DNA of 64,000 bases from Candidatus Altiarchaeota archaeon (GCA_043800705.1 JAZDMS010000010.1:2570-66569); one strand, 5' to 3'. Positions 18,481 to 54,533 are shown, counted from the first letter of the stretch. The notes: a model not told the origin generated them from the sequence alone. A program made the numbers and translations.

Positions 18481-18589
18481 CAGGGCTCCCTAATCGGCCT
18501 TTCAAGTATTTTAAAGAACAGTCCATATATATAGAATCTCAACAAAACCTCATTAGAATCGCCATAAACGCAAAATAAACAATTCATAT

Positions 18590-18672
18590 GCGGGGGTACC
18601 CGAGCGGCCAAAGGGGCAGGACTTAAGATCCTGTGACGCAGGTCTTCGAGGGTTCAAATCCCTTCCCCCGCA
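18590..18672 (+). tRNA. tRNA-Leu (anticodon TAA), class II with a long variable arm
   Basis: Acceptor stem GCGGGGG/CCCCCGC, anticodon stem CAGGA/TCCTG, loop CTTAAGA, T-arm GGGTTCAAATCCC. No encoded CCA. Confidence 0.85.
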
Positions 18673-18725
18673 ATCCTCGTAGGAGTCGTTTCCAGTATTT
18701 AACGAAAAAAGTAATGAATTAGAAG

Positions 18726-19220
18726 ATGAAACTAGGATTAGTAGGAAAGATAGTACTGGCTGTGTTGATTCTTATTATAGGATATTATGTATTGGGTAAG
18801 ATTCTCTTTGCTATCTTTTCCAGTAGTGTCGAATGTCATGATAAAAGCAATGGGTGGTATTGTAATGGAAACATGCCCGTGCCAATCTTCATGTTTTTCA
18901 TACAAGGTGAGTATGAGAAGAAGTGTGTCGCTGAAGGAGGGATTACTAACTGGGGCCATGGATTACTTTCAGTCGTATGCGAACTTCCATTAGACGATGC
19001 AGGAAAGACATGTACTAGTGCGTCACATTGCAAAGGCCCATGCTATGTTGAAGAAGAATATCTGAAATCTAAGTTCCCAGAGATAAAGCCTCATGAGTAT
19101 TTTGGGCTTGATTGTAGGGATTGCAAGGCACAATGCTATAAGTATAATGTGACCTGCAATGGATTTCCACCCTACACCTTAGATGACAATGGGAAAATAG
19201 CAGGGAAAATGATATGCTAG
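18726..19220 (+). CDS. Small cysteine-rich secreted or membrane-anchored protein (12 Cys)
   Basis: N-terminal TM/signal anchor and 12 Cys in about 130 extracellular residues. AT-rich codon usage unlike the flanking genes. Confidence 0.45.
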   Translation: MKLGLVGKIVLAVLILIIGYYVLGKILFAIFSSSVECHDKSNGWYCNGNMPVPIFMFFIQGEYEKKCVAEGGITNWGHGLLSVVCELPLDDAGKTCTSASHCKGPCYVEEEYLKSKFPEIKPHEYFGLDCRDCKAQCYKYNVTCNGFPPYTLDDNGKIAGKMIC

Positions 19221-19334
19221 TATTTGTAATGCCAATACTTGATACATCCTTGACTCTTTTTATTACCAGACTTGTATAAGACTATTACACGGGTTGTGTA
19301 ATCCGTTAGAGAAACGAGGCCTGTGCGGTGGACG

Positions 19335-19372
19335 CTTCCCCCGCAAACAAATAAAGGGTTCAAATCCTTTCC
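19335..19372 (+). repeat. att-like remnants: cttcccccgca plus agggttcaaatcctttcc, copies of the tRNA-Leu 3' region
   Basis: An 11-nt exact match and a 17/18-nt match to tRNA-Leu positions covering the T-arm and acceptor 3' strand. Confidence 0.5.
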
Positions 19373-19431
19373 TATCTGTTGTTAGCACGATACTTTATAG
19401 GTCTATAATGCTATAGTATTATGGTGATACT

Positions 19432-19638
19432 ATGAACACAACTATCCAAGTCAATATAGAAACCAAGAATGTTCTGGAGAGGGTCAAGGAAACGTATCAT
19501 GTAAAATCTTATGATGATGCCATCCGTAAGTTAATCAACACAAAAACGCAGAGCCTATATGGTAGCTTGGCCACAAAGAAGAACATGCAGATGAAGGACA
19601 TACTAGCGGGTTTGAGAGATAAAAATGACCGGGATTAG
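19432..19638 (+). CDS. vapB: Putative VapB-type antitoxin
   Basis: A 68-aa ORF overlapping the downstream PIN gene by 14 nt. Confidence 0.5.
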   Translation: MNTTIQVNIETKNVLERVKETYHVKSYDDAIRKLINTKTQSLYGSLATKKNMQMKDILAGLRDKNDRD

Positions 19639-20008
19639 GCTATTGATAGATTCCAGCATTTGGCTGGCCTACTTTCTCGCTTTAGAGGGGAAAGTTGCTA
19701 CCCTAATTGACTCTGAAGAAAATACACTTTACACATCAGTCATTAGCCTGCATGAAGTGCAAAAAAAATTGGCGAAGATGGGCCACACCAGCCATCAGAT
19801 TGCTAAAGCCATCGCTTTCATGAAACAGAACAGTGTGCTCGTACAAATAGACGCTAAGATAGCGGAGGCATCAGTCGCCCACTGCAGAGAACATGGACTG
19901 CACACAGTCGATGCCCTCATATATGAAACAGCAGTAGAAAACAAATGTACTCTACTGACTGGGGACTACGACTTCAAAAACCTCCCCAACACAGAGATAT
20001 TCAGGTAA
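19625..20008 (+). CDS. vapC: PIN-domain toxin VapC
   Basis: PIN acidic residues (LLIDSS, TVDALIYETA, LLTGDYDF). Confidence 0.8.
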   Translation: MTGIRLLIDSSIWLAYFLALEGKVATLIDSEENTLYTSVISLHEVQKKLAKMGHTSHQIAKAIAFMKQNSVLVQIDAKIAEASVAHCREHGLHTVDALIYETAVENKCTLLTGDYDFKNLPNTEIFR

Positions 20009-20053
20009 AGCCTGGGCCGGAAGACCGTAGACGGAGGACTGGAGACTTTCCCG

Positions 20054-20068
20054 ATCCCTTCCCCCGCA
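20054..20068 (+). repeat. att-like direct repeat atcccttcccccgca, identical to the 3' terminal 15 nt of tRNA-Leu
   Basis: Exact 15-nt match to 18658-18672. Confidence 0.55.
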
Positions 20069-20210: not shown

Positions 20211-20341
20211 TTTTTTATTGGCTTCGATTATCCTTTTTCTTCTCTTGTCTAATTTATTCATCCTGCGCGTTTTTGCCATAATCCTTTCAACTTTATTTTT
20301 CATTGGCTTCAATTACCCTATTTCCCCTCTTGTTTAATATA
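20211..20341. repeat. Two imperfect ~40-nt direct repeats (attggcttcRattaYcct...ctcttgtYtaat) spaced ~87 nt apart, iteron-like
   Basis: Read directly: about 75% identity between the copies. Located between convergent genes. Confidence 0.3.
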
Positions 20342-20366
20342 TGCGGTTTTACTTGTATTGTGGCTG

Positions 20367-34009: not shown

Positions 34010-35593
34010 GTGGAAGCCGAGGTGCATGGAAAACAGTTCAGAAAGGCTGCTTTAGTCAGCCAGTTTCGGCAGGGTAAGCCGGCGGAGGAGGCATTGGCCT
34101 ACATGGTGAAGAAATTCCACCAGGATATGCCCCCCGAGGAAGTCAGACGGCTATATTCGCACATGAACCCGTCCCCCCTGAAGTTTTCGAGGCTACCCCC
34201 AGAGCAGGTATCAGAGGCATACCGAAGACAAAGGCAGAGGCAGAAGGAGAGGGCAGATAGGATCGGGCAGAAGAAGCTTGGCAGATCGCTTACGCCCGCC
34301 ACTCGTAAAAAAATCGCCGAGGCGGGTATGGGCAGGGTGATGTCGGAGGAATCGAAAAAGAAGATAAGCGCCGCCAATACCGGGAAAATTGTCAGCCCAG
34401 AGACTAGGGAGAAGCTTCGGAAGGCGAAACTTGGCACAACCCAAAGCGAAGAGACCAAGGAGAAGAAACGCAAGGCCAGCCTTGGCAGAGTCGTCACCCC
34501 CCAAACCCGGGGGAGATTGAGCAAGGCATTAATGGGCCATAGCGTAAGTCCTGAAGCTAGGGAGAAGATTGCCGATGCCGCTAGAATGAGGACCGGCAGA
34601 AAAAATTCATTCTTCGGGAGGCATCATACGCCGGAGACAAAAAAAAGGCTGAGTGAACGGATGTCTGGCGAAATGCACCCGATGTTTGGCAAACACCTAT
34701 CTGAAGAGGCAAGGCGAAAAATAAGCGAGTCTAAAAAAGGACCTAAGAATCCGATGTTTGGCGTGCATAAACCTCATAGCCCTGAAACAAAAAAAAGCAT
34801 AAGCGAGTCTCTGTTAAGCTTCAATAAGGTGTTCTCTGCCAAGGGCGGTGGCGAGACAATTGACGTGCCTGCCATCGACGACGAGGACATGTCACTGATA
34901 TCTGATGCATTGTCGAGGCACAGGGATTTGGGCATCCTCTACTGTGTGGCGAAAATTGACAGAAATAAGGCTGACCGCCTTGTCTCCTCGCACAAGTTGG
35001 ACGTGCGTCGCATGGTGGAGGAGAGACTTACACCCTACAAACTCGCACCGGATAGCGGGATAATGCTCGCCTGGGTTTACCTCATGGCTAAAGAACTAGG
35101 GGTGGATATTTCCCCGTCCGAGGAACATGCCATCATCATAGGGGGAGAGGCAAAGCGGCTTATGGCGAACGTTAAGGGGTCTGACGTAGTCGACTACATC
35201 GATGTAATCGACTTTGCAGAGCTCTCCTCAACGATGCCACAGATCGGCATCAGAGCGGATTATAAAGAAGTCGAGGAACCTATGAGGACACACCTCATCT
35301 GTTTTTTGGCTGATGCCAGGCATAGGGCAAAAAAGTTATGGAAGGATTTGCGAACTGCCAGGACAGAAAATGAGTTGGATGAATCGAACCGTAACCTGGG
35401 CAGCATGACGGCTTCGATACTCCTCAACATGGGGCGCATGGGCTTCGGGGCGGATGTCACAGGCGATGATTGGGATATAATGGCCTCCCGGCTGGAGTCC
35501 TTCAGGGAATCAAATAACGCCTCAGGAATCGCATGGATGCATTATGCCCTGAGGGAAATCTCCAAATACTATCCTCTTAAGGCCAGACCTTGA
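34010..35593 (+). CDS. NUMOD3 tandem-repeat DNA-binding protein (8-9 repeats) with a C-terminal domain of unknown function and no nuclease domain
   Basis: Repeats of [ST]xE[AT][RK]xK[IL]SxAxxG with a ~22-aa period between residues 90 and 260. GTG start. Confidence 0.65.
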   Translation: MEAEVHGKQFRKAALVSQFRQGKPAEEALAYMVKKFHQDMPPEEVRRLYSHMNPSPLKFSRLPPEQVSEAYRRQRQRQKERADRIGQKKLGRSLTPATRKKIAEAGMGRVMSEESKKKISAANTGKIVSPETREKLRKAKLGTTQSEETKEKKRKASLGRVVTPQTRGRLSKALMGHSVSPEAREKIADAARMRTGRKNSFFGRHHTPETKKRLSERMSGEMHPMFGKHLSEEARRKISESKKGPKNPMFGVHKPHSPETKKSISESLLSFNKVFSAKGGGETIDVPAIDDEDMSLISDALSRHRDLGILYCVAKIDRNKADRLVSSHKLDVRRMVEERLTPYKLAPDSGIMLAWVYLMAKELGVDISPSEEHAIIIGGEAKRLMANVKGSDVVDYIDVIDFAELSSTMPQIGIRADYKEVEEPMRTHLICFLADARHRAKKLWKDLRTARTENELDESNRNLGSMTASILLNMGRMGFGADVTGDDWDIMASRLESFRESNNASGIAWMHYALREISKYYPLKARP

Positions 35594-45909: not shown

Positions 45910-47058
45910 CTAACAATGCTTTGCGTCGGCATCTGCCAAGTACCCCCTCGACGCCATATACCACAGGACGATGATCAAGGGTAAGGCATACTTCTCCCAT
46001 ATGATGAACGAGAAAGCCACGACCAGACAGTTGAAACAGACCATGAGCGATGGAAGGCCGAGCCGCTGAAACCTTAGGACGGCCAAGGCAGCCAACATGT
46101 AATATGCCGCGATGCGCAGAGGCTCTCCAGCGAAGCCAGCCAAGAACGTATCGAATATCCCCATCGTCTTGATGGGATAAACCCCCGGGTTCCCGTAAGG
46201 GGGGAATGACACGAACAACGCAAAGAGCACAACCATAACCGGCACCACAGACTTGCGAGGGCGTCTCAACCACCCGAAGCCGAACAACAATGACTCTACC
46301 AAGACATAATACAACCCGACCATCGAAAGAAGGAAAAGGCTGTATTCCGGATGCAACCCCAACATGGACGGCTTCGGAGAAAGGCCCGGAGGCCCGAATC
46401 CGCCGAAGAGAAGATACCACCCTAAAAGGGACATCGAAGCCATCACATGGGGTGCGGCAGAAGCCAACCGCCTCCTGGAACCTGAAAACAACTCCCATGC
46501 CGCGATGGCAGCGGGGAAGCAGACCATGAACTGCCTTGACGAGACCGCCAGGACGAAGAATAACCCGCTGACCCATCCCTTACCCCGCTCGTAAGCCAGG
46601 AACCCGCACAGCACAAAGAACGACGCCACCATGTCCGTGTATGCGTAGGCGGAAGCCAGCCAGAAATACGGGAACAAGAACAGGCCCACCAAAGGCCGGA
46701 ACCTGCATCCCCTGGCCACGATACAGGCAACCGCGAAGGAGACGAGGAAATTGGTCGCCCTGGCGCCGGAGACACCGAACCCGAAGGTCCGCTCAAGAAG
46801 GGAAAACAGATAAAACACCAGCGGCGTAGGATAGACCCCAGACACCTTCCCGGAATATCCGCGAAGCGCCTCGATATCCGGCATGACCCCCCCTGAAGAG
46901 AAAGCCAAAACGGACGGCCAGAAGAACCGCTCATCGTTTCGCGCATCGAACATTAGCGCCGGCGCGAGGAGGAACGCAATAAGATAAACGGCCATGACGG
47001 CGAACAGGCATCCGTTCTTACAGGAAACCCCCCCCAATACCCGCATAATCCCCTCCAT
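45910..47058 (-). CDS. Polytopic membrane protein, possibly a GT-C glycosyltransferase
   Basis: About 11 TM helices. TATA-like ATATAAATAA about 35 nt upstream. Confidence 0.45.
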   Translation of the reverse strand: MEGIMRVLGGVSCKNGCLFAVMAVYLIAFLLAPALMFDARNDERFFWPSVLAFSSGGVMPDIEALRGYSGKVSGVYPTPLVFYLFSLLERTFGFGVSGARATNFLVSFAVACIVARGCRFRPLVGLFLFPYFWLASAYAYTDMVASFFVLCGFLAYERGKGWVSGLFFVLAVSSRQFMVCFPAAIAAWELFSGSRRRLASAAPHVMASMSLLGWYLLFGGFGPPGLSPKPSMLGLHPEYSLFLLSMVGLYYVLVESLLFGFGWLRRPRKSVVPVMVVLFALFVSFPPYGNPGVYPIKTMGIFDTFLAGFAGEPLRIAAYYMLAALAVLRFQRLGLPSLMVCFNCLVVAFSFIIWEKYALPLIIVLWYMASRGYLADADAKHC

Positions 47059-47116
47059 AACGCATCAGTTTCACATAACCATTGCCGCTAGAATTATTTA
47101 TATCCCGCCAAAAATC

Positions 47117-47205
47117 GGAAGTCTTCTGTCTACTGTTTCCAGTCTTCTGTCTTTGGTTTCCGCTCTTCGGTCTACCGTCTTCAGTTTCCGGTCTTCGGTC
47201 TAGTT
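47117..47205. repeat. Four tandem copies of a 21-nt unit tttccRStcttcKgtctWNNg in the 5' region of the membrane-protein gene
   Basis: Read directly. Units at 47117-47135, 47136-47156, 47157-47177 and 47185-47205. Confidence 0.5.
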
Positions 47206-47242
47206 GAAACTCAGGACAGAGGACTGTGGACTTGATAATAAT

Positions 47243-47420
47243 AATGGGCCCGCCCGGATTCTTGAAAAAGCCTTCGGCTTTTTACATCCAGGCGGGTGCG
47301 TGAGACGAGACGCCAGTGGGAAGATAAGAAATGGGCCCGCCCGGATTTTTCCAAAAAAGCGCCTCGCGCTTTTTACATCCGTGCGGGTTCGCGAGACGAA
47401 TTCGCTTCGGAAAGATACTA
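47243..47420 (-). repeat. Two tandem ~89-nt units, each carrying a copy of the 3'-terminal 17 nt of tRNA-Val plus an A-tract/hairpin/T-tract terminator-like element
   Basis: atgggcccgcccggatt occurs at 47243, 47330 and 47421 (the real tRNA end). The hairpins are gccttcggc and gcgcctcgcgc, each flanked by A5-6 and T5-6. Confidence 0.6.
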
Positions 47421-47421
47421 A

Positions 47422-47496
47422 TGGGCCCGCCCGGATTTGAACCGGGGACCTCCGCCATGTCAAGGCGACGTCATAGCCGGACTAGACCACGAGCCC
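47422..47496 (-). tRNA. tRNA-Val (anticodon GAC)
   Basis: Cloverleaf on the minus strand: acceptor GGGCTCG/CGGGCCC, anticodon stem TCGCC/GGCGG, loop TTGACAT, T-arm CCCGG-TTCAAAT-CCGGG. Confidence 0.8.
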
Positions 47497-47717
47497 TTTT
47501 TTTTGTTGGTTGTTTGTTGTTCTTTTTCCAGAGGGGCTGGAGCGGAGCGGAATGCCCTCCTTCGCCAGCCTTAGTAAGGCTGCCATGAGGCCTTTTTGTG
47601 GGTATTAATAAGTGCTTCAGGGTTTATTAGCGTTAGTTTTTGTTTGTAGCGTGCGTTGTTTTTATCATCAACAACATATTCGCATCGGATTTAAGGCTGT
47701 GATTCGCAGAATTATCC

Positions 47718-51205: not shown

Positions 51206-51526
51206 ATGGGCCGCTCGAGGGATAAGGGGGAGCAGAGGGATATTGCGCTCGAACGCGTCATGTTGCTTCTTGCCCAGGCCGAGTCTTTGGCGTCTGGGGG
51301 CGATCCGGGTTCAGCGTCTTCGAGGGTGAGGCTGGCGAACAGGATATGTCTCCGTTTCAATCTGCGCCTTCCGCCTGTTTTGAGGCTGCGGTACTGCCGC
51401 GGGTGCCTGTCGTATTTCACGTTATCGAATTCCCGCCGCAGGCTGGATCCGAGGAATCGGAGGCTTGTGGTCAGATGCCTCGCCTGTGGTAGATGCGCAT
51501 ACCGCCCGTATTTCAAGAAGGCTTAG
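51206..51526 (+). CDS. rnp4: RNase P protein component 4 (Rpp21/Rpr2)
   Basis: Zn ribbon CRGC...CLAC and about 105 aa. Confidence 0.65.
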   Translation: MGRSRDKGEQRDIALERVMLLLAQAESLASGGDPGSASSRVRLANRICLRFNLRLPPVLRLRYCRGCLSYFTLSNSRRRLDPRNRRLVVRCLACGRCAYRPYFKKA

Positions 51527-54500
51527 TCTTCTTCTTCACGAAACTTGTGATGTTGAGCATCAGCTTCTCGGCTGGTGACGGGGTCTTTGGCTGATTCGGC
51601 TCTGCGGCCTGCGGGGGTTTTGTTGTCTGTGCGGGAGGCTCCTGAGGCGGCGTTTTCACTGGCTCTTGCGGTTTCTTTTCATCCTTAGGTATGAGGGTTA
51701 TCCTGTGGCGTATGCCCTTCTTGCCTGAGCCGGCCGACGGCTGCGGTATTTGAGGCTTCGGCTGCTGGGGTATTGTCTGCGGGGCTTTTGGCGGTATTGT
51801 CTGGGGTTTGGGTTGTTGGGGCGGCGTCTGTTGCATCGGCTGTGTTGTCTGCTGTTTGGGTTGTTGGGGTATTGTCTGCGGGGCTTTTGGCGGTATTGTC
51901 TGGGGTTTGGGTTGTTGGGGCGGCGTCTGTTGCATCGGCTGTGTTGTCTGCGGCTTAGGCTGCATCGGTCTCATGGGGCCCGACTGCGTTGTGGCCGGCC
52001 TGGCCACCGGTTGTGTAAGTGGTCTCTGCATCTGCGGCATCGGGAATTTACCTGGAGGCTGCGGCTTGTATCCAGGCTGCGGCATCGGCGGCCTCTGAGG
52101 CTGGCCTGGCATCCTCGGCGGCAGCTGCCCCGGCGGAATCGGCCTGTACTGTCCCTGCGGCATCTGCTTGTATTGCATTGATACTGTCGACGGCTGTTTC
52201 TTGAGTATGATCGCTGCTGCGAGGATGAGGAGCGCGATGGTGACTACTACCGTAGAATTCATCCATCCCGAGGATGAGGTCGTCGGGGTCTGGGCTTTGT
52301 TCGAGTTGTCGATGATCTTCCTCGCCTTGGCATATCCGGCATAGTCTCCGCTTTCGTTGAACTTCCTTGACGCGTTCTCCGCGTATTCGGCGGCCTTCTT
52401 GAAATACGCCCCCCTCCAGTACAATTCCGCGTCGTTGTAGAGCATATTGGCCTCATACATATTGTTGGCTTTCTGGTAGAGCTTCAGCGATTTTTCGAAT
52501 CCCTCCGCGCTCGTGTTCTCGAACCATTTCATGGCCTCCTTCGCGTTCTCTGTCGCGTTTTCGAAGCTGCTCCTGTTGAGGGCTGCGGCCGCGGCGGCAT
52601 ATGATTCATCGCCTTTTATGGTGTCTACGGTCCTGTCAATCTTCGCCATATCCTCGGTCCTTCCCGCAAGTTCGAACGATTTTTTCGCGAATCCGAGGAG
52701 CATCTTGGCGGTATCGAGCCTGCCTTCCTTCAGCGCGCTCATCCCGTCCTCGTAGTACGTCTGCGCATTGTCCTGGTTTTTGGTGATTACTGTGAGATTC
52801 TGGCATTTAATGATGCCTTCGGTGTCGTTCAGGCTCCTGAAGAACGTCTTTGCGGCTTCGATGTATACCGACGCGTTGGAGTGCAGTCCGCTGTCGAAGT
52901 AGTATTTTCCTTCGAGGTAGTATTTTTCGGCCTCGATCCTGCGGAAGAGTATGTCGCTCCTGTCCATCCCCCCCGTGTCGTTTACCTGCCTGTAAGTTTC
53001 GGCCGCCCTCTGCAGCTGCTGCCCTGCGTCTTCGAAGTCGCCTTGCTCGTAGAGTCTCTGCGCGTCCTGGAGGATCCTGTCCGAGTCGATGCTCTCCAGG
53101 AGGTCGTCGCATTTGTCTATGCCCCTGATGTACTTGACCTTCGCGTATATCTCGCGGGCCTGGTTGATGAGGGGTATGGCTTCCGCGAAGTTGCCGACTC
53201 CCTTTTGTTCGAGGGCTTTGAGGTAGAGTGCGTCGCCTACCCCTATGCTCCTGCCCCTTCTGTCCCCGAATAGGTAGACTTTTCCGTTATCTGAGCCGAT
53301 GGCTATCTCCGGGGACCCGTCGCCTGTGAGGTCCGCGACCGCCGGCGATGACCTGACCGCGGACCCGGTATCGTGGCTGAACCTCCGGACGCCGGGGTAG
53401 TCGACGATGTAGAAGCTGCCTTCGTTGCTGCCGAATATGACCTCGATCGTGCCGTCGCCGTCGAGGTCGGCTAGCGCAGGGGAGGATTCGATCGGCTTGC
53501 TGAGCGTATACGTCCTGTTGTCCGTCCCGTCGGAGTTGACGAAATGGAGGTTTTTATCGCCGGCTCCGACTGCCAGCCCGTATCCTCCTTCGGGGAACAC
53601 GTCCCCGACCGCCGTGGATGATCTGATCGGACTGTCGATCGTGTGATTCCACAGGAGTCCGAGGCCGCTCAGGCTGATCGTGTCGGTGCCCCACACATCG
53701 TCTACCCGGACCCTCCTCGTCTCGGCAGTGCCCATCCACTGTATCTCCAGCCTGTATATCACTCCGTCCTCGGAGCCGACGATTATCCTCCCGGATTCGT
53801 CTATGGTCGGGGTCGCGCTAATGTCCCCCTTCGTAAGGTACTGCCAGACCTTGTAGGGGGGGTATTTCAGGACATAGATGATGTTGTCCGCTGAACCGAT
53901 GATGATCTCGTCTTTCCCGTCGATGTCGATGTCGTATATGGCTGGCGAGGAGTCGATCTTGTCCAGCGTCTTGTACGACCAGTCCTCGACTCCCTTGGAG
54001 TTGAGGGCGTATATCCTTCCATCCTCGGATCCGAACACTATCTTGTTGTCGGACTGCGGGTCGGTCTCGATGAGTGCGGGCGAAGACCTGACAGGCCCCC
54101 CCGTGGAGAAGTTCCATATGTGCCTTCCGCGGCTGTCCAAGAGGTAGAGCCTGCCGTCGTCGGAGCCGATGAGTATTTCGGTCTTTTGGTCTTTGAAGAC
54201 GTCAGCCGCGGTCGGCGACGACCTGACCGGCCCGCCGGTCTTGAACCTCCATTCAACCTCGCCCTGATAATCCAGGGCATAGACGTATCCGTCGGCGGAT
54301 CCGAACACGATCTCCTTGATGCCGTCCATGTCTATGTCTGATATCACCGGCGAGGACTCGACCTGGCCCCCCGTCTGGTAGTCCCAGAGGGCTCCGAAGT
54401 CGCTCATGTTGCACCAGGTTTCCGCGTCGCTCTCCCCGGTCCGCAGGAAATTCCCCCTGAACGTGGGCCAGTCTGCGGCCGCGGCGTTCTGTGCCAGGAT

Positions 54501-54533
54501 TAGTAGGATCGCGAGGTATGGGGCGCTTCTCAT
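51513..54533 (-). CDS. Large surface protein (signal peptide, PQQ-like beta-propeller repeats, a helical/TPR-like region, one TM helix and a Pro/Gln-rich repetitive tail)
   Basis: N-terminal signal MRSAPYLAILLILAQNAAAA. Repeats of the BamB/PQQ type (DGxxYALD...W). TM VVVTIALLILAAAIIL. The tail consists of QPKPQT-like repeats. Confidence 0.7.
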   Translation of the reverse strand: MRSAPYLAILLILAQNAAAADWPTFRGNFLRTGESDAETWCNMSDFGALWDYQTGGQVESSPVISDIDMDGIKEIVFGSADGYVYALDYQGEVEWRFKTGGPVRSSPTAADVFKDQKTEILIGSDDGRLYLLDSRGRHIWNFSTGGPVRSSPALIETDPQSDNKIVFGSEDGRIYALNSKGVEDWSYKTLDKIDSSPAIYDIDIDGKDEIIIGSADNIIYVLKYPPYKVWQYLTKGDISATPTIDESGRIIVGSEDGVIYRLEIQWMGTAETRRVRVDDVWGTDTISLSGLGLLWNHTIDSPIRSSTAVGDVFPEGGYGLAVGAGDKNLHFVNSDGTDNRTYTLSKPIESSPALADLDGDGTIEVIFGSNEGSFYIVDYPGVRRFSHDTGSAVRSSPAVADLTGDGSPEIAIGSDNGKVYLFGDRRGRSIGVGDALYLKALEQKGVGNFAEAIPLINQAREIYAKVKYIRGIDKCDDLLESIDSDRILQDAQRLYEQGDFEDAGQQLQRAAETYRQVNDTGGMDRSDILFRRIEAEKYYLEGKYYFDSGLHSNASVYIEAAKTFFRSLNDTEGIIKCQNLTVITKNQDNAQTYYEDGMSALKEGRLDTAKMLLGFAKKSFELAGRTEDMAKIDRTVDTIKGDESYAAAAAALNRSSFENATENAKEAMKWFENTSAEGFEKSLKLYQKANNMYEANMLYNDAELYWRGAYFKKAAEYAENASRKFNESGDYAGYAKARKIIDNSNKAQTPTTSSSGWMNSTVVVTIALLILAAAIILKKQPSTVSMQYKQMPQGQYRPIPPGQLPPRMPGQPQRPPMPQPGYKPQPPGKFPMPQMQRPLTQPVARPATTQSGPMRPMQPKPQTTQPMQQTPPQQPKPQTIPPKAPQTIPQQPKQQTTQPMQQTPPQQPKPQTIPPKAPQTIPQQPKPQIPQPSAGSGKKGIRHRITLIPKDEKKPQEPVKTPPQEPPAQTTKPPQAAEPNQPKTPSPAEKLMLNITSFVKKKTKPS
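51767..51964 (-). repeat. Near-perfect 99-bp (33-aa) in-frame tandem duplication inside the PQ-rich tail
   Basis: ggggtattgtctgcggggcttttggcggtattgtctggggtttgggttgttggggcggcgtctgttgcatcggctgtgttgtctgc occurs twice consecutively. It encodes QTTQPMQQTPPQQPKPQTIPPKAPQTIPQQPKx twice. Confidence 0.7.

Follow-up and report, generated by a model that had tools for sequence, protein, structure and literature searches.

Downstream of the tRNA-Val(GAC) gene in a 64,000-nt stretch of DNA from a Candidatus Altiarchaeota archaeon (the window), two short modules are lined up in tandem, each of which is closed by an exact copy of the tRNA's own 3' end. This array is real, noncoding, and not a CRISPR. We hold with moderate confidence that it represents a miniature stack of att-type insertion scars, or mini-cassettes, behind the tRNA gene. 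Among the observations that argue for this reading are these: the tRNA-Leu gene of the same genome carries inserts and has a rare motif in common with the tRNA-Val flank; comparable arrays of Woesearchaeota vary from one to three units, keep the native flank last, and have a unit-free sister; and the units behind tyrV of Escherichia coli show a like architecture.

On the minus strand, both ARAGORN and Rfam call a tRNA-Val(GAC) gene (47496→47422; Rfam tRNA score of 59.2 bits). The 17-mer ATGGGCCCGCCCGGATT from its 3' end occurs exactly three times, starting on the plus strand at 47244, 47331, and 47421, where 0.06 occurrences are expected and three or more matches were reached in 0 of 100 shuffles. 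The original prediction of a threefold tRNA 3' end is thereby borne out; of its positions for the 17-mer, the first two were off by one and the third was right. The exact block common to all copies is in fact 18 nt long (AATGGGCCCGCCCGGATT on the plus strand, AATCCGGGCGGGCCCATT on the tRNA strand) and lies at 47243–47260, 47330–47347, and 47420–47437. On the tRNA strand, AATCCGGGCGGGCCCATT hence recurs downstream at 47347→47330 and 47260→47243, and the two units follow tRNA-Val in the direction of the gene, as had been predicted. This 18-nt core comprises 16 nt of the tRNA—two T-loop nucleotides, the 3' strand of the T-stem, the 3' strand of the acceptor, and the discriminator—and 2 nt of the trailer. 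The tRNA-Val gene itself is intact beside these direct repeats of its own 3' part (59 bits; three exact 18-mers). TRF describes the array as 2.2 copies of a period of 91 with 80% matches. In the direction of the tRNA, the order is tRNA(S1) – X_A (72 nt) – S2 – X_B (69 nt) – S3 – flank, with the following elements:

47422–47496, minus strand: tRNA-Val(GAC) gene, without encoded CCA (ARAGORN; Rfam)
47420–47437, minus strand: core copy 1 (S1), the genuine tRNA 3' end plus 2 trailer nt, AATCCGGGCGGGCCCATT (exact 18-mer)
47348–47419, minus strand: module X_A, 72 nt, with T-rich trailer, small hairpin, anti-core, and inner hairpin with T6
47377–47387, minus strand: anti-core A, CCCGCACGGAT, an inverted 10/11 copy of the tRNA 3' end that pairs with core copy 2
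47353–47374, minus strand: inner hairpin A, A5-GCGC-GAG-GCGC-T6
47330–47347, minus strand: core copy 2 (S2), exact 18-mer (sequence match)
47261–47329, minus strand: module X_B, 69 nt, laid out as X_A
47286–47296, minus strand: anti-core B, CCCGCCTGGAT, with 11 bp of pairing to core copy 3
47265–47283, minus strand: inner hairpin B, A5-GCC-GAA-GGC-T5
47243–47260, minus strand: core copy 3 (S3), exact 18-mer (sequence match), abutting an unrelated distal flank

The modules X_A and X_B are homologous to each other: their alignment contains 54 matches, 11 mismatches, and 11 gap columns, which corresponds to 71% gapped and 83% ungapped identity, and the longest identical run outside the cores measures 13 nt. 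At this divergence, cores that agree at 18 of 18 positions have a chance probability of about 0.002–0.04. Because the units differ at about 17–29% of their positions, the collapse or expansion of a repeat during assembly—the alternative that the original prediction had named—is unlikely. Analogous arrays do break contigs elsewhere (L129, L131, and L135); here, however, the differences between the units include indels in addition, and the array sits inside a 211-kb contig, which makes an artefact of this metagenome-assembled genome (MAG) extremely improbable. The prediction was also right that this is not a CRISPR array, which we rejected on the grounds that there are three repeats, that the "spacers" are 71–83% identical to each other, and that the repeat is a tRNA end.

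Both units follow one order: a T-rich trailer (AGTATCTTTCC / TCTTATCTTCC), a small hairpin, an 11-nt anti-core, the inner hairpin, 5–6 nt, and the core copy. The anti-cores CCCGCACGGAT and CCCGCCTGGAT match the reverse complement of the tRNA end at 10 of their 11 positions—an inverted copy in each unit on which the original prediction was silent, as it was on the tyrT/rtT precedent in E. coli. In a duplex test of core versus module interior, anti-core A reaches −18.7 kcal/mol (shuffle fraction 0.087) and anti-core B −23.6 kcal/mol, with an equally good duplex in 0 of 300 shuffles. Folded as RNA or ssDNA, each unit is predicted to pair its anti-core with the following core copy around the inner hairpin, at minimum free energies of −33 to −34 kcal/mol and with z-scores of −1.9 and −3.5. 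The inner stems of A and B differ by a matched indel on both arms. Two convergent tRNA genes with a common terminator were rejected as an explanation, because anti-core and core point away from the hairpin. It is also very improbable that the units are decayed tandem copies of the tRNA-Val gene. Their length of 87–90 nt is about that of a tRNA plus a spacer, and tRNA-Met genes with degenerate tRNA-like copies exist in two of the loci compared below (L081 and L089); the module interiors, however, do not resemble the 5'-terminal 59 nt of the tRNA (shuffle fraction 0.77–0.99), and within them ARAGORN makes no call and Rfam finds no match at E ≤ 10.

Archaeal transcription termination is signaled by oligo-T runs, for which lengths such as T6 and T5 are sufficient. 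On the tRNA strand, the hairpins provide exactly such runs, T6 at 47358→47353 and T5 at 47269→47265, and the only other run of at least five Ts between tRNA-Val and the next gene lies at 47114. The array is probably the terminator region of tRNA-Val, with the modules supplying its oligo-T terminators. The predicted hairpin next to each copy is present, but its proposed ability to terminate transcription in either direction follows bacterial logic and found no support: a scan with a bacterial terminator consensus (a GC-rich stem of at least 5 bp, then a T-run) gave 0 calls on these hairpins, because their A and T runs pair together. The GC stems measure 3–4 bp, with the T-run paired to the A-run. 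For an archaeal polymerase, the signal is likely to lie in the T-runs by themselves.

A central observation concerns the DNA beyond the last core. The 93 nt after S3 show no similarity to X_A or X_B, with local alignment scores at the shuffle mean (fraction 0.74–0.79). Since this flank is unrelated to the modules, a plain tandem duplication of native DNA is insufficient, and the arrangement S-X-S-X-S-F, with F unrelated to X, implies a minimum of one insertion by which the tRNA end was duplicated. Judged by the order of its parts, this arrangement has the geometry of site-specific integration. A local tandem duplication of the native 3' end together with its trailer and terminator—by slippage or unequal crossing-over, with conversion keeping the cores identical—has several points on its side: the 2.2 copies seen by TRF, the homology of the units, a stem of core and anti-core plus inner hairpin that would join the unit boundaries in a known slippage context, and copy-number changes of near-identical units in Woesearchaeota that fit unequal exchange. 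Yet it would give S-X-S-X-(X)-flank, so that an extra precise deletion is needed, whereas the flank after the third core is unlike X; the Woesearchaeota module is likewise unrelated to the native flank of a unit-free sister species. We regard this origin as rather unlikely.

The second tRNA of the window, and the only other one, is tRNA-Leu(TAA), whose surroundings form a parallel locus:

18589–18673, plus strand: tRNA-Leu(TAA) (ARAGORN)
18589–20068, plus strand: the parallel locus as a whole, including the low-GC inserts
19335–19345: partial copy of the tRNA-Leu 3' end, with an inverted copy directly before it (TGCGGTGGACG/CTTCCCCCGCA)
19355–19372: tRNA-Leu T-arm fragment
20054–20068: exact 15-nt copy of the tRNA-Leu 3' end

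The DNA after tRNA-Leu is low in GC (0.44) and contains two inserts of ∼0.67 and ∼0.72 kb. At the first distal copy, 19320–19345 forms a palindrome of the tRNA end. The cargo of the inserts consists of a small Cys-rich membrane protein and a pair in which a VapB-like protein (a weak match) accompanies a PIN-domain protein (PIN E = 1e-15). Because these inserts are bounded by the gene's own 3' end, the genome has undergone integration at tRNA 3' ends. In the AT-rich stretch past the inserts, two 47-nt direct repeats (20211–20342) are 83% identical and lie 85 nt apart.

The distal flank of tRNA-Val holds a further set of repeats before the next gene:

47210–47234: one inverted copy of the AGACNGAAGACNGGAAAC-type repeat
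47120–47202, within 47120–47234 on the minus strand: four ∼21-nt direct repeats of the AGACNGAAGACNGGAAAC type
45910–47058, minus strand: downstream gene for a 382-aa membrane protein, co-oriented with tRNA-Val, with a weak DIE2/ALG10 match

The motif AGACNGA[AG]GAC (the AGACNGAAGAC motif) has four matches in the window, all of them at the tRNA-Val flank or the tRNA-Leu locus: three in the four ∼21-nt repeats past S3 and one immediately before the distal tRNA-Leu copy. Its background amounts to 0.27 per 64 kb, as counted over 1.4 Mb of other loci. Moreover, the tRNA-Val flank aligns to 20018–20046 of the tRNA-Leu locus over 29 nt with 23 identities (p about 0.001). The repeats at both loci may be arm-type sites of one recombination system; they could instead be iteron-like or regulatory sites. 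On the minus strand at 47100–47115, ATTTTTGGCGGGATAT comes after "...GACTTCCG", and at the tRNA-Leu locus the exact core copy comes after "...GACTTTCCCG". The sequence ATTTTTGGCGGGATAT may be a decayed fourth copy of the tRNA-Val core, or just part of the promoter of the downstream gene, as a TATA-like GATATAAATAA overlaps it.

That the host is an archaeon is shown by window genes for TFB, TBP, archaellin, RNase P p30, and KaiC-like ATPases. Two other proteins of the window may be mentioned. A 496-aa protein (34103–35593) bears four NUMOD3 motifs, a DNA-binding motif of homing endonucleases, and is placed between methionyl-tRNA synthetase/diphthamide synthase genes on one side and the RNase P p30 gene on the other. 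A 1006-aa PQQ/FG-GAP β-propeller protein (51513–54533) ends in a long P/Q-rich tandem-repeat tail of the PQQPKPQT type.

Several results count against att-type scars, among them that no recombinase is found among the window ORFs scanned and that no virus or plasmid searched carries the core or the array. A Pfam scan for an integrase, Cas1, or transposase was negative for 41 window ORFs of at least 180 aa plus the tRNA-Leu neighbors, several of the scanned ORFs being without any Pfam match. As regards viruses and plasmids, where the original prediction had suggested looking for the core, the 18-mer is absent from IMG/VR in an exact scan, a 20-mer exact scan of IMG/VR has matches in phage tRNA-Met genes only, and the array is without a match in PLSDB or INPHARED (plasmids and phages). 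The motif of the ∼21-nt repeats was set aside: its 27 single matches in IMG/VR are, by a rough estimate, close to what chance would produce for 16 specified bases. The proposal of stacked att scars or tRNA-end duplication is partly supported, by the insertion geometry, the tRNA-Leu inserts, and the 0–3 units of Woesearchaeota; no recombinase was found within the 64 kb.

This MAG is singly sampled, with no close relative in the collections searched. An exact-protein search with two window proteins gave no match, and a scan of genome contigs with the flanking 382-aa protein gave no relative; this protein is 100% identical to a protein of an NCBI Candidatus Altiarchaeota MAG, with the next homologue at 41%. 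A scan with the hydrogenase large subunit returned 80 loci, mostly of Methanomicrobiales, at 61–75% identity. In 0 of 60 scanned loci was tRNA-Val located beside the hydrogenase, and no synteny with the window was found.

Other tRNA genes of archaea show the same design. When metagenomes were scanned for a pair of TCCGGGCGGGCCCA copies spaced 55–85 nt apart, 15 contigs were obtained (given here by L numbers, as are the other loci compared). In several of them, an archaeal-type tRNA is followed by one to three short units with a hairpin and T-run just upstream of the tRNA-end copy. The tRNAs concerned are tRNA-Val(CAC), tRNA-Val(GAC), a probable intron-bearing tRNA-Val(GAC), and tRNA-Pro. A GC-rich family (L085, L090, and L092) has a strong anti-core like the window, and the AT-rich families have none in the duplex test. 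In every lineage examined, the copy starts at the boundary of T-loop and T-stem. In the genome of L090, a tRNA-Gly(GCC) gene divergent from tRNA-Pro (L136/L137, 1967–2240) has one downstream unit of 87 nt that ends in a 13/14 copy of its own 3' end, different from the Val core. As this unit carries its own, different end, the phenomenon is not tied to one core sequence. After the tRNA-Gly unit, its first 54 nt are repeated. Units are absent at six unselected tRNAs of the fetched loci, and the pattern is sporadic. Strains with an identical GNAT protein beside the tRNA-Pro array of L090 carry an identical array; in relatives of L085, homology ends exactly at the GNAT stop codon and no core is present. 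Literature searches returned no earlier description of such archaeal arrays.

Some further contigs deviate from this layout. In L081 (7966–8140) and L089 (3603–3850), a tRNA-Met(CAT) gene with encoded CCA is followed by tandem degenerate tRNA-like copies, in which the D arm, T arm, and 3' end are kept and the anticodon arm is replaced; ARAGORN makes no call on them. Core repeats without a nearby tRNA call are seen in L084, L087, L094, and L095, with two identical 70–86-nt units after "...GGTTAATATAATCCGGGCGGGCCCACCC", and L082 holds a cluster of closely spaced core copies, again with no tRNA called nearby.

Variation between strains can be followed in the AT-rich family, which belongs to the Woesearchaeota by the names on its AlaRS homologues. 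Contigs with an AlaRS at least 90% identical have the locus alaX – tRNA-Val(CAC) – array – alaS in common. The array has one unit in L128, L132, and L133, two in L134, three in L127, L130, and L091, and at least three in L129; in L129, L131, and L135, the contig breaks inside it. All these arrays end in one common unit and one common native flank after the last core, and every array of two to three units has one degenerate internal core in common (TCAGAACGGGCCCA). The units are mosaics of differently combined left and right halves. At tRNA-Val(CAC), L130 has a first unit that is identical over 72 nt to the unit of L088, at tRNA-Val(GAC). In the sister species (AlaRS 75% identical), the tRNA is joined straight to the common flank, with zero units; this state could be ancestral or the result of a core-by-core deletion. 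In either case, the Woesearchaeota modules are not derived from the native flank, vary in number, and occur at different tRNA genes that share an end. Upstream of the tRNA, at 74–2295 of L132/L133, a MazG-like gene and a SLFN-type helicase pair take the place of hisS/alaX of L127/L130. The region upstream of the Woesearchaeota tRNA-Val being variable as well, the locus appears as a rearrangement hotspot on both sides.

A bacterial counterpart has reportedly been known since the work of Egan and Landy in 1978 and of Rossi in 1981, in which E. coli tyrT was said to be followed by 178-bp repeats, each containing the tRNA-Tyr 3' end. The tyrT/tyrV repeats are the RtT/rttR element (Rfam RF00391; Bosl and Kersten 1991, cited in PMC3318445). 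On NC_000913.3, the E. coli tyrV gene has 3.1 units of 178 bp behind it, which are 95% identical. Each of them ends in AATCCTTCCCCCACCACCA, the last 19 nt of the tRNA, and contains an inverted copy, GGGGAAGGAT, that pairs with the core copy (duplex p = 0.013). The end of the annotated small RNA rttR coincides with the final base of the first core copy (NC_000913.3), and the sequence after the last core copy diverges, as in the window. A bioRxiv preprint on the E. coli mobilome (10.1101/2024.07.17.603846) describes an increase of coverage over tyrT-rttR. Both systems hence consist of tandem units downstream of a tRNA with exact copies of its 3' end (19 nt in E. coli, 18 nt in the window) and an inverted repeat of this end inside each unit, base-paired to the core around internal hairpins. 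The E. coli units, however, are bacterial, 178 bp long, and 95% identical, they include the CCA, and one is an annotated sRNA overlapped by the tpr ORF, whereas the window units are archaeal, half that size, and 71–83% identical, with T-runs before each copy. The RtT covariance model has no match in 47000–47600 of the window at E ≤ 10, while the positive control gave four E. coli matches at 133–137 bits. In architecture, the window array resembles the tyrT repeats, yet it does not belong to the RtT family.

This precedent raises the question of whether the units exist for the sake of RNA—as rtT-like trailer RNAs or tRNA-like minihelices cut by tRNA 3'/5' processing enzymes from a read-through tRNA-Val transcript and serving in regulation or processing, the repeats being a by-product of selection on this RNA. 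In the predicted fold, the tRNA-end copy of each unit pairs with the anti-core and leaves a CCCA 3' tail, and the inner stems differ by a matched indel. An anti-core reaches significance in E. coli and in L085/L090/L092 as well as in the window; the E. coli annotation places rttR on such a unit, with its end at the core copy; and the common start of the copies at the T-loop/T-stem boundary points the same way. On the other hand, the T6 and T5 runs lie upstream of each core copy, so that most transcripts should stop before reaching it; the AT-rich families are without an anti-core; and an internal core is degenerate in all Woesearchaeota arrays of two to three units. Rfam, including RtT, has no match at E ≤ 10, and two units are too few for covariation. 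An RNA purpose appears doubtful to us, even if the readings as att scars, as local duplication, and as RNA units are partly compatible.

Among known mobile systems, CIME-type elements (Streptococcus ICESt) have att sites that flank noncoding DNA and are mobilized in trans; they are of kilobase scale and bacterial. They resemble the window array in that attL and attR surround a short DNA without recombination genes, and in that remnants can accrete with other elements. What sets CIMEs apart is their demonstrated trans-mobilization. Integron attC sites share with the array an imperfectly palindromic build, in which core and inverse core enclose a variable inner stem-loop, and the stacking beside a primary site. 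Here, by contrast, the core is the tRNA's own sequence and differs between tRNAs, and no IntI was found. An attC identity was rejected, as the boxes GTTRRRY / RYYYAAC are found on neither strand of 47243–47437.

The habits of archaeal integrases come closer. These enzymes favor tRNA 3' ends with variable 5' limits, tRNA-Val(CAC) is among their most used targets, and archaeal elements integrate in tandem and frequently lose the integrase (PMC8371274). The identity block of the window, running from the T-loop to 2 nt beyond the gene, fits these habits (PMC8371274). As in archaeal attL/attR pairs of tyrosine recombinases (PMC8371274, PMC9897764), the gene is restored by a directly repeated 3' part of the tRNA, several copies are stacked at one tRNA, and the native flank comes last. 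Such elements often lose their integrase, and tRNA-Val is frequently targeted; the tRNA-Leu locus of the window is a textbook case. What differs from attL/attR is that the window inserts are ∼70 nt long, gene-less, and homologous to each other, with no integrase nearby and no attP-bearing element found. A crossover in the T-loop should also leave a 5' T-stem half-site, and such a half-site is not conserved in the core copies of the window. With 89 bp, a unit is too short to circularize as an autonomous element.

Casposons likewise target tRNA 3' ends, with duplications of 14–15 bp and tandem stacking; these duplications start at the last 4 nt of the tRNA, run into an AT-rich trailer, and adjoin terminal inverted repeats (PMC4779613). 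Miniature elements could accordingly have left casposase (Cas1)-type target-site duplications at the tRNA 3' end, and the cores here, at 14–18 nt, are within the range of casposon duplications (PMC4779613). The documented duplications, however, consist of CGCA plus trailer, whereas the window core lies inside the tRNA; inspection of the modules reveals no terminal inverted repeats, and no Cas1 is found among the window ORFs scanned. We judge such an origin highly improbable.

For the preferred reading as att-type scars, a possible course of events can be outlined. Recombination at the tRNA end would have inserted a module and duplicated the core, by a tyrosine-type integrase acting in trans on a remnant or nonautonomous element or by re-insertion of a core-flanked cassette. 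The second module would have arisen in a repeat of this event, or else by unequal exchange of core copies with later divergence; because X_A and X_B are homologous, unequal exchange may account for the second unit in place of a second integration. Exchange between cores would add, remove, and reshuffle units, and recombination or conversion against the tRNA might keep the cores identical. The modules would now serve as the 3' flank of the tRNA, whose T6 and T5 runs might halt the archaeal RNA polymerase ahead of the membrane-protein gene that follows in the same orientation. In a read-through transcript, the stem of anti-core and core would offer a tRNA-like 3' strand, which could be trimmed like E. 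coli rtT.

A broader view, which we put forward as speculative and quite unlikely, is that of an unrecognized, widespread class of miniature noncoding cassettes that are mobile or amplifying on archaeal tRNA 3' ends, with E. coli rtT as the bacterial counterpart. Such a cassette would run from a trailer through an inverted tRNA end (optional) and a hairpin to the tRNA end. Recombination would use the tRNA end itself, perhaps folded into an attC-like palindrome, or perhaps by way of small circles that core-by-core exchange excises, and the cassettes would deliver ready-made terminators or processing signals to tRNA genes.

If the reading as insertion scars is true, archaeal tRNA 3' ends collect tiny, gene-less, terminator-bearing modules besides large integrated elements, and these modules vary in number between strains and may appear at different tRNA genes with the same end. 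A 45-year-old curiosity of E. coli, the tyrT/rtT repeats, would be linked to a general process, and some contig breaks and "partial tRNA" calls in archaeal MAGs would find an explanation. The modules would also provide a simple marker for recombination activity at tRNA genes. The array itself is an archaeal variant of a known design, and its main value lies in pointing to recurrent, little-described mini-modules at tRNA ends.
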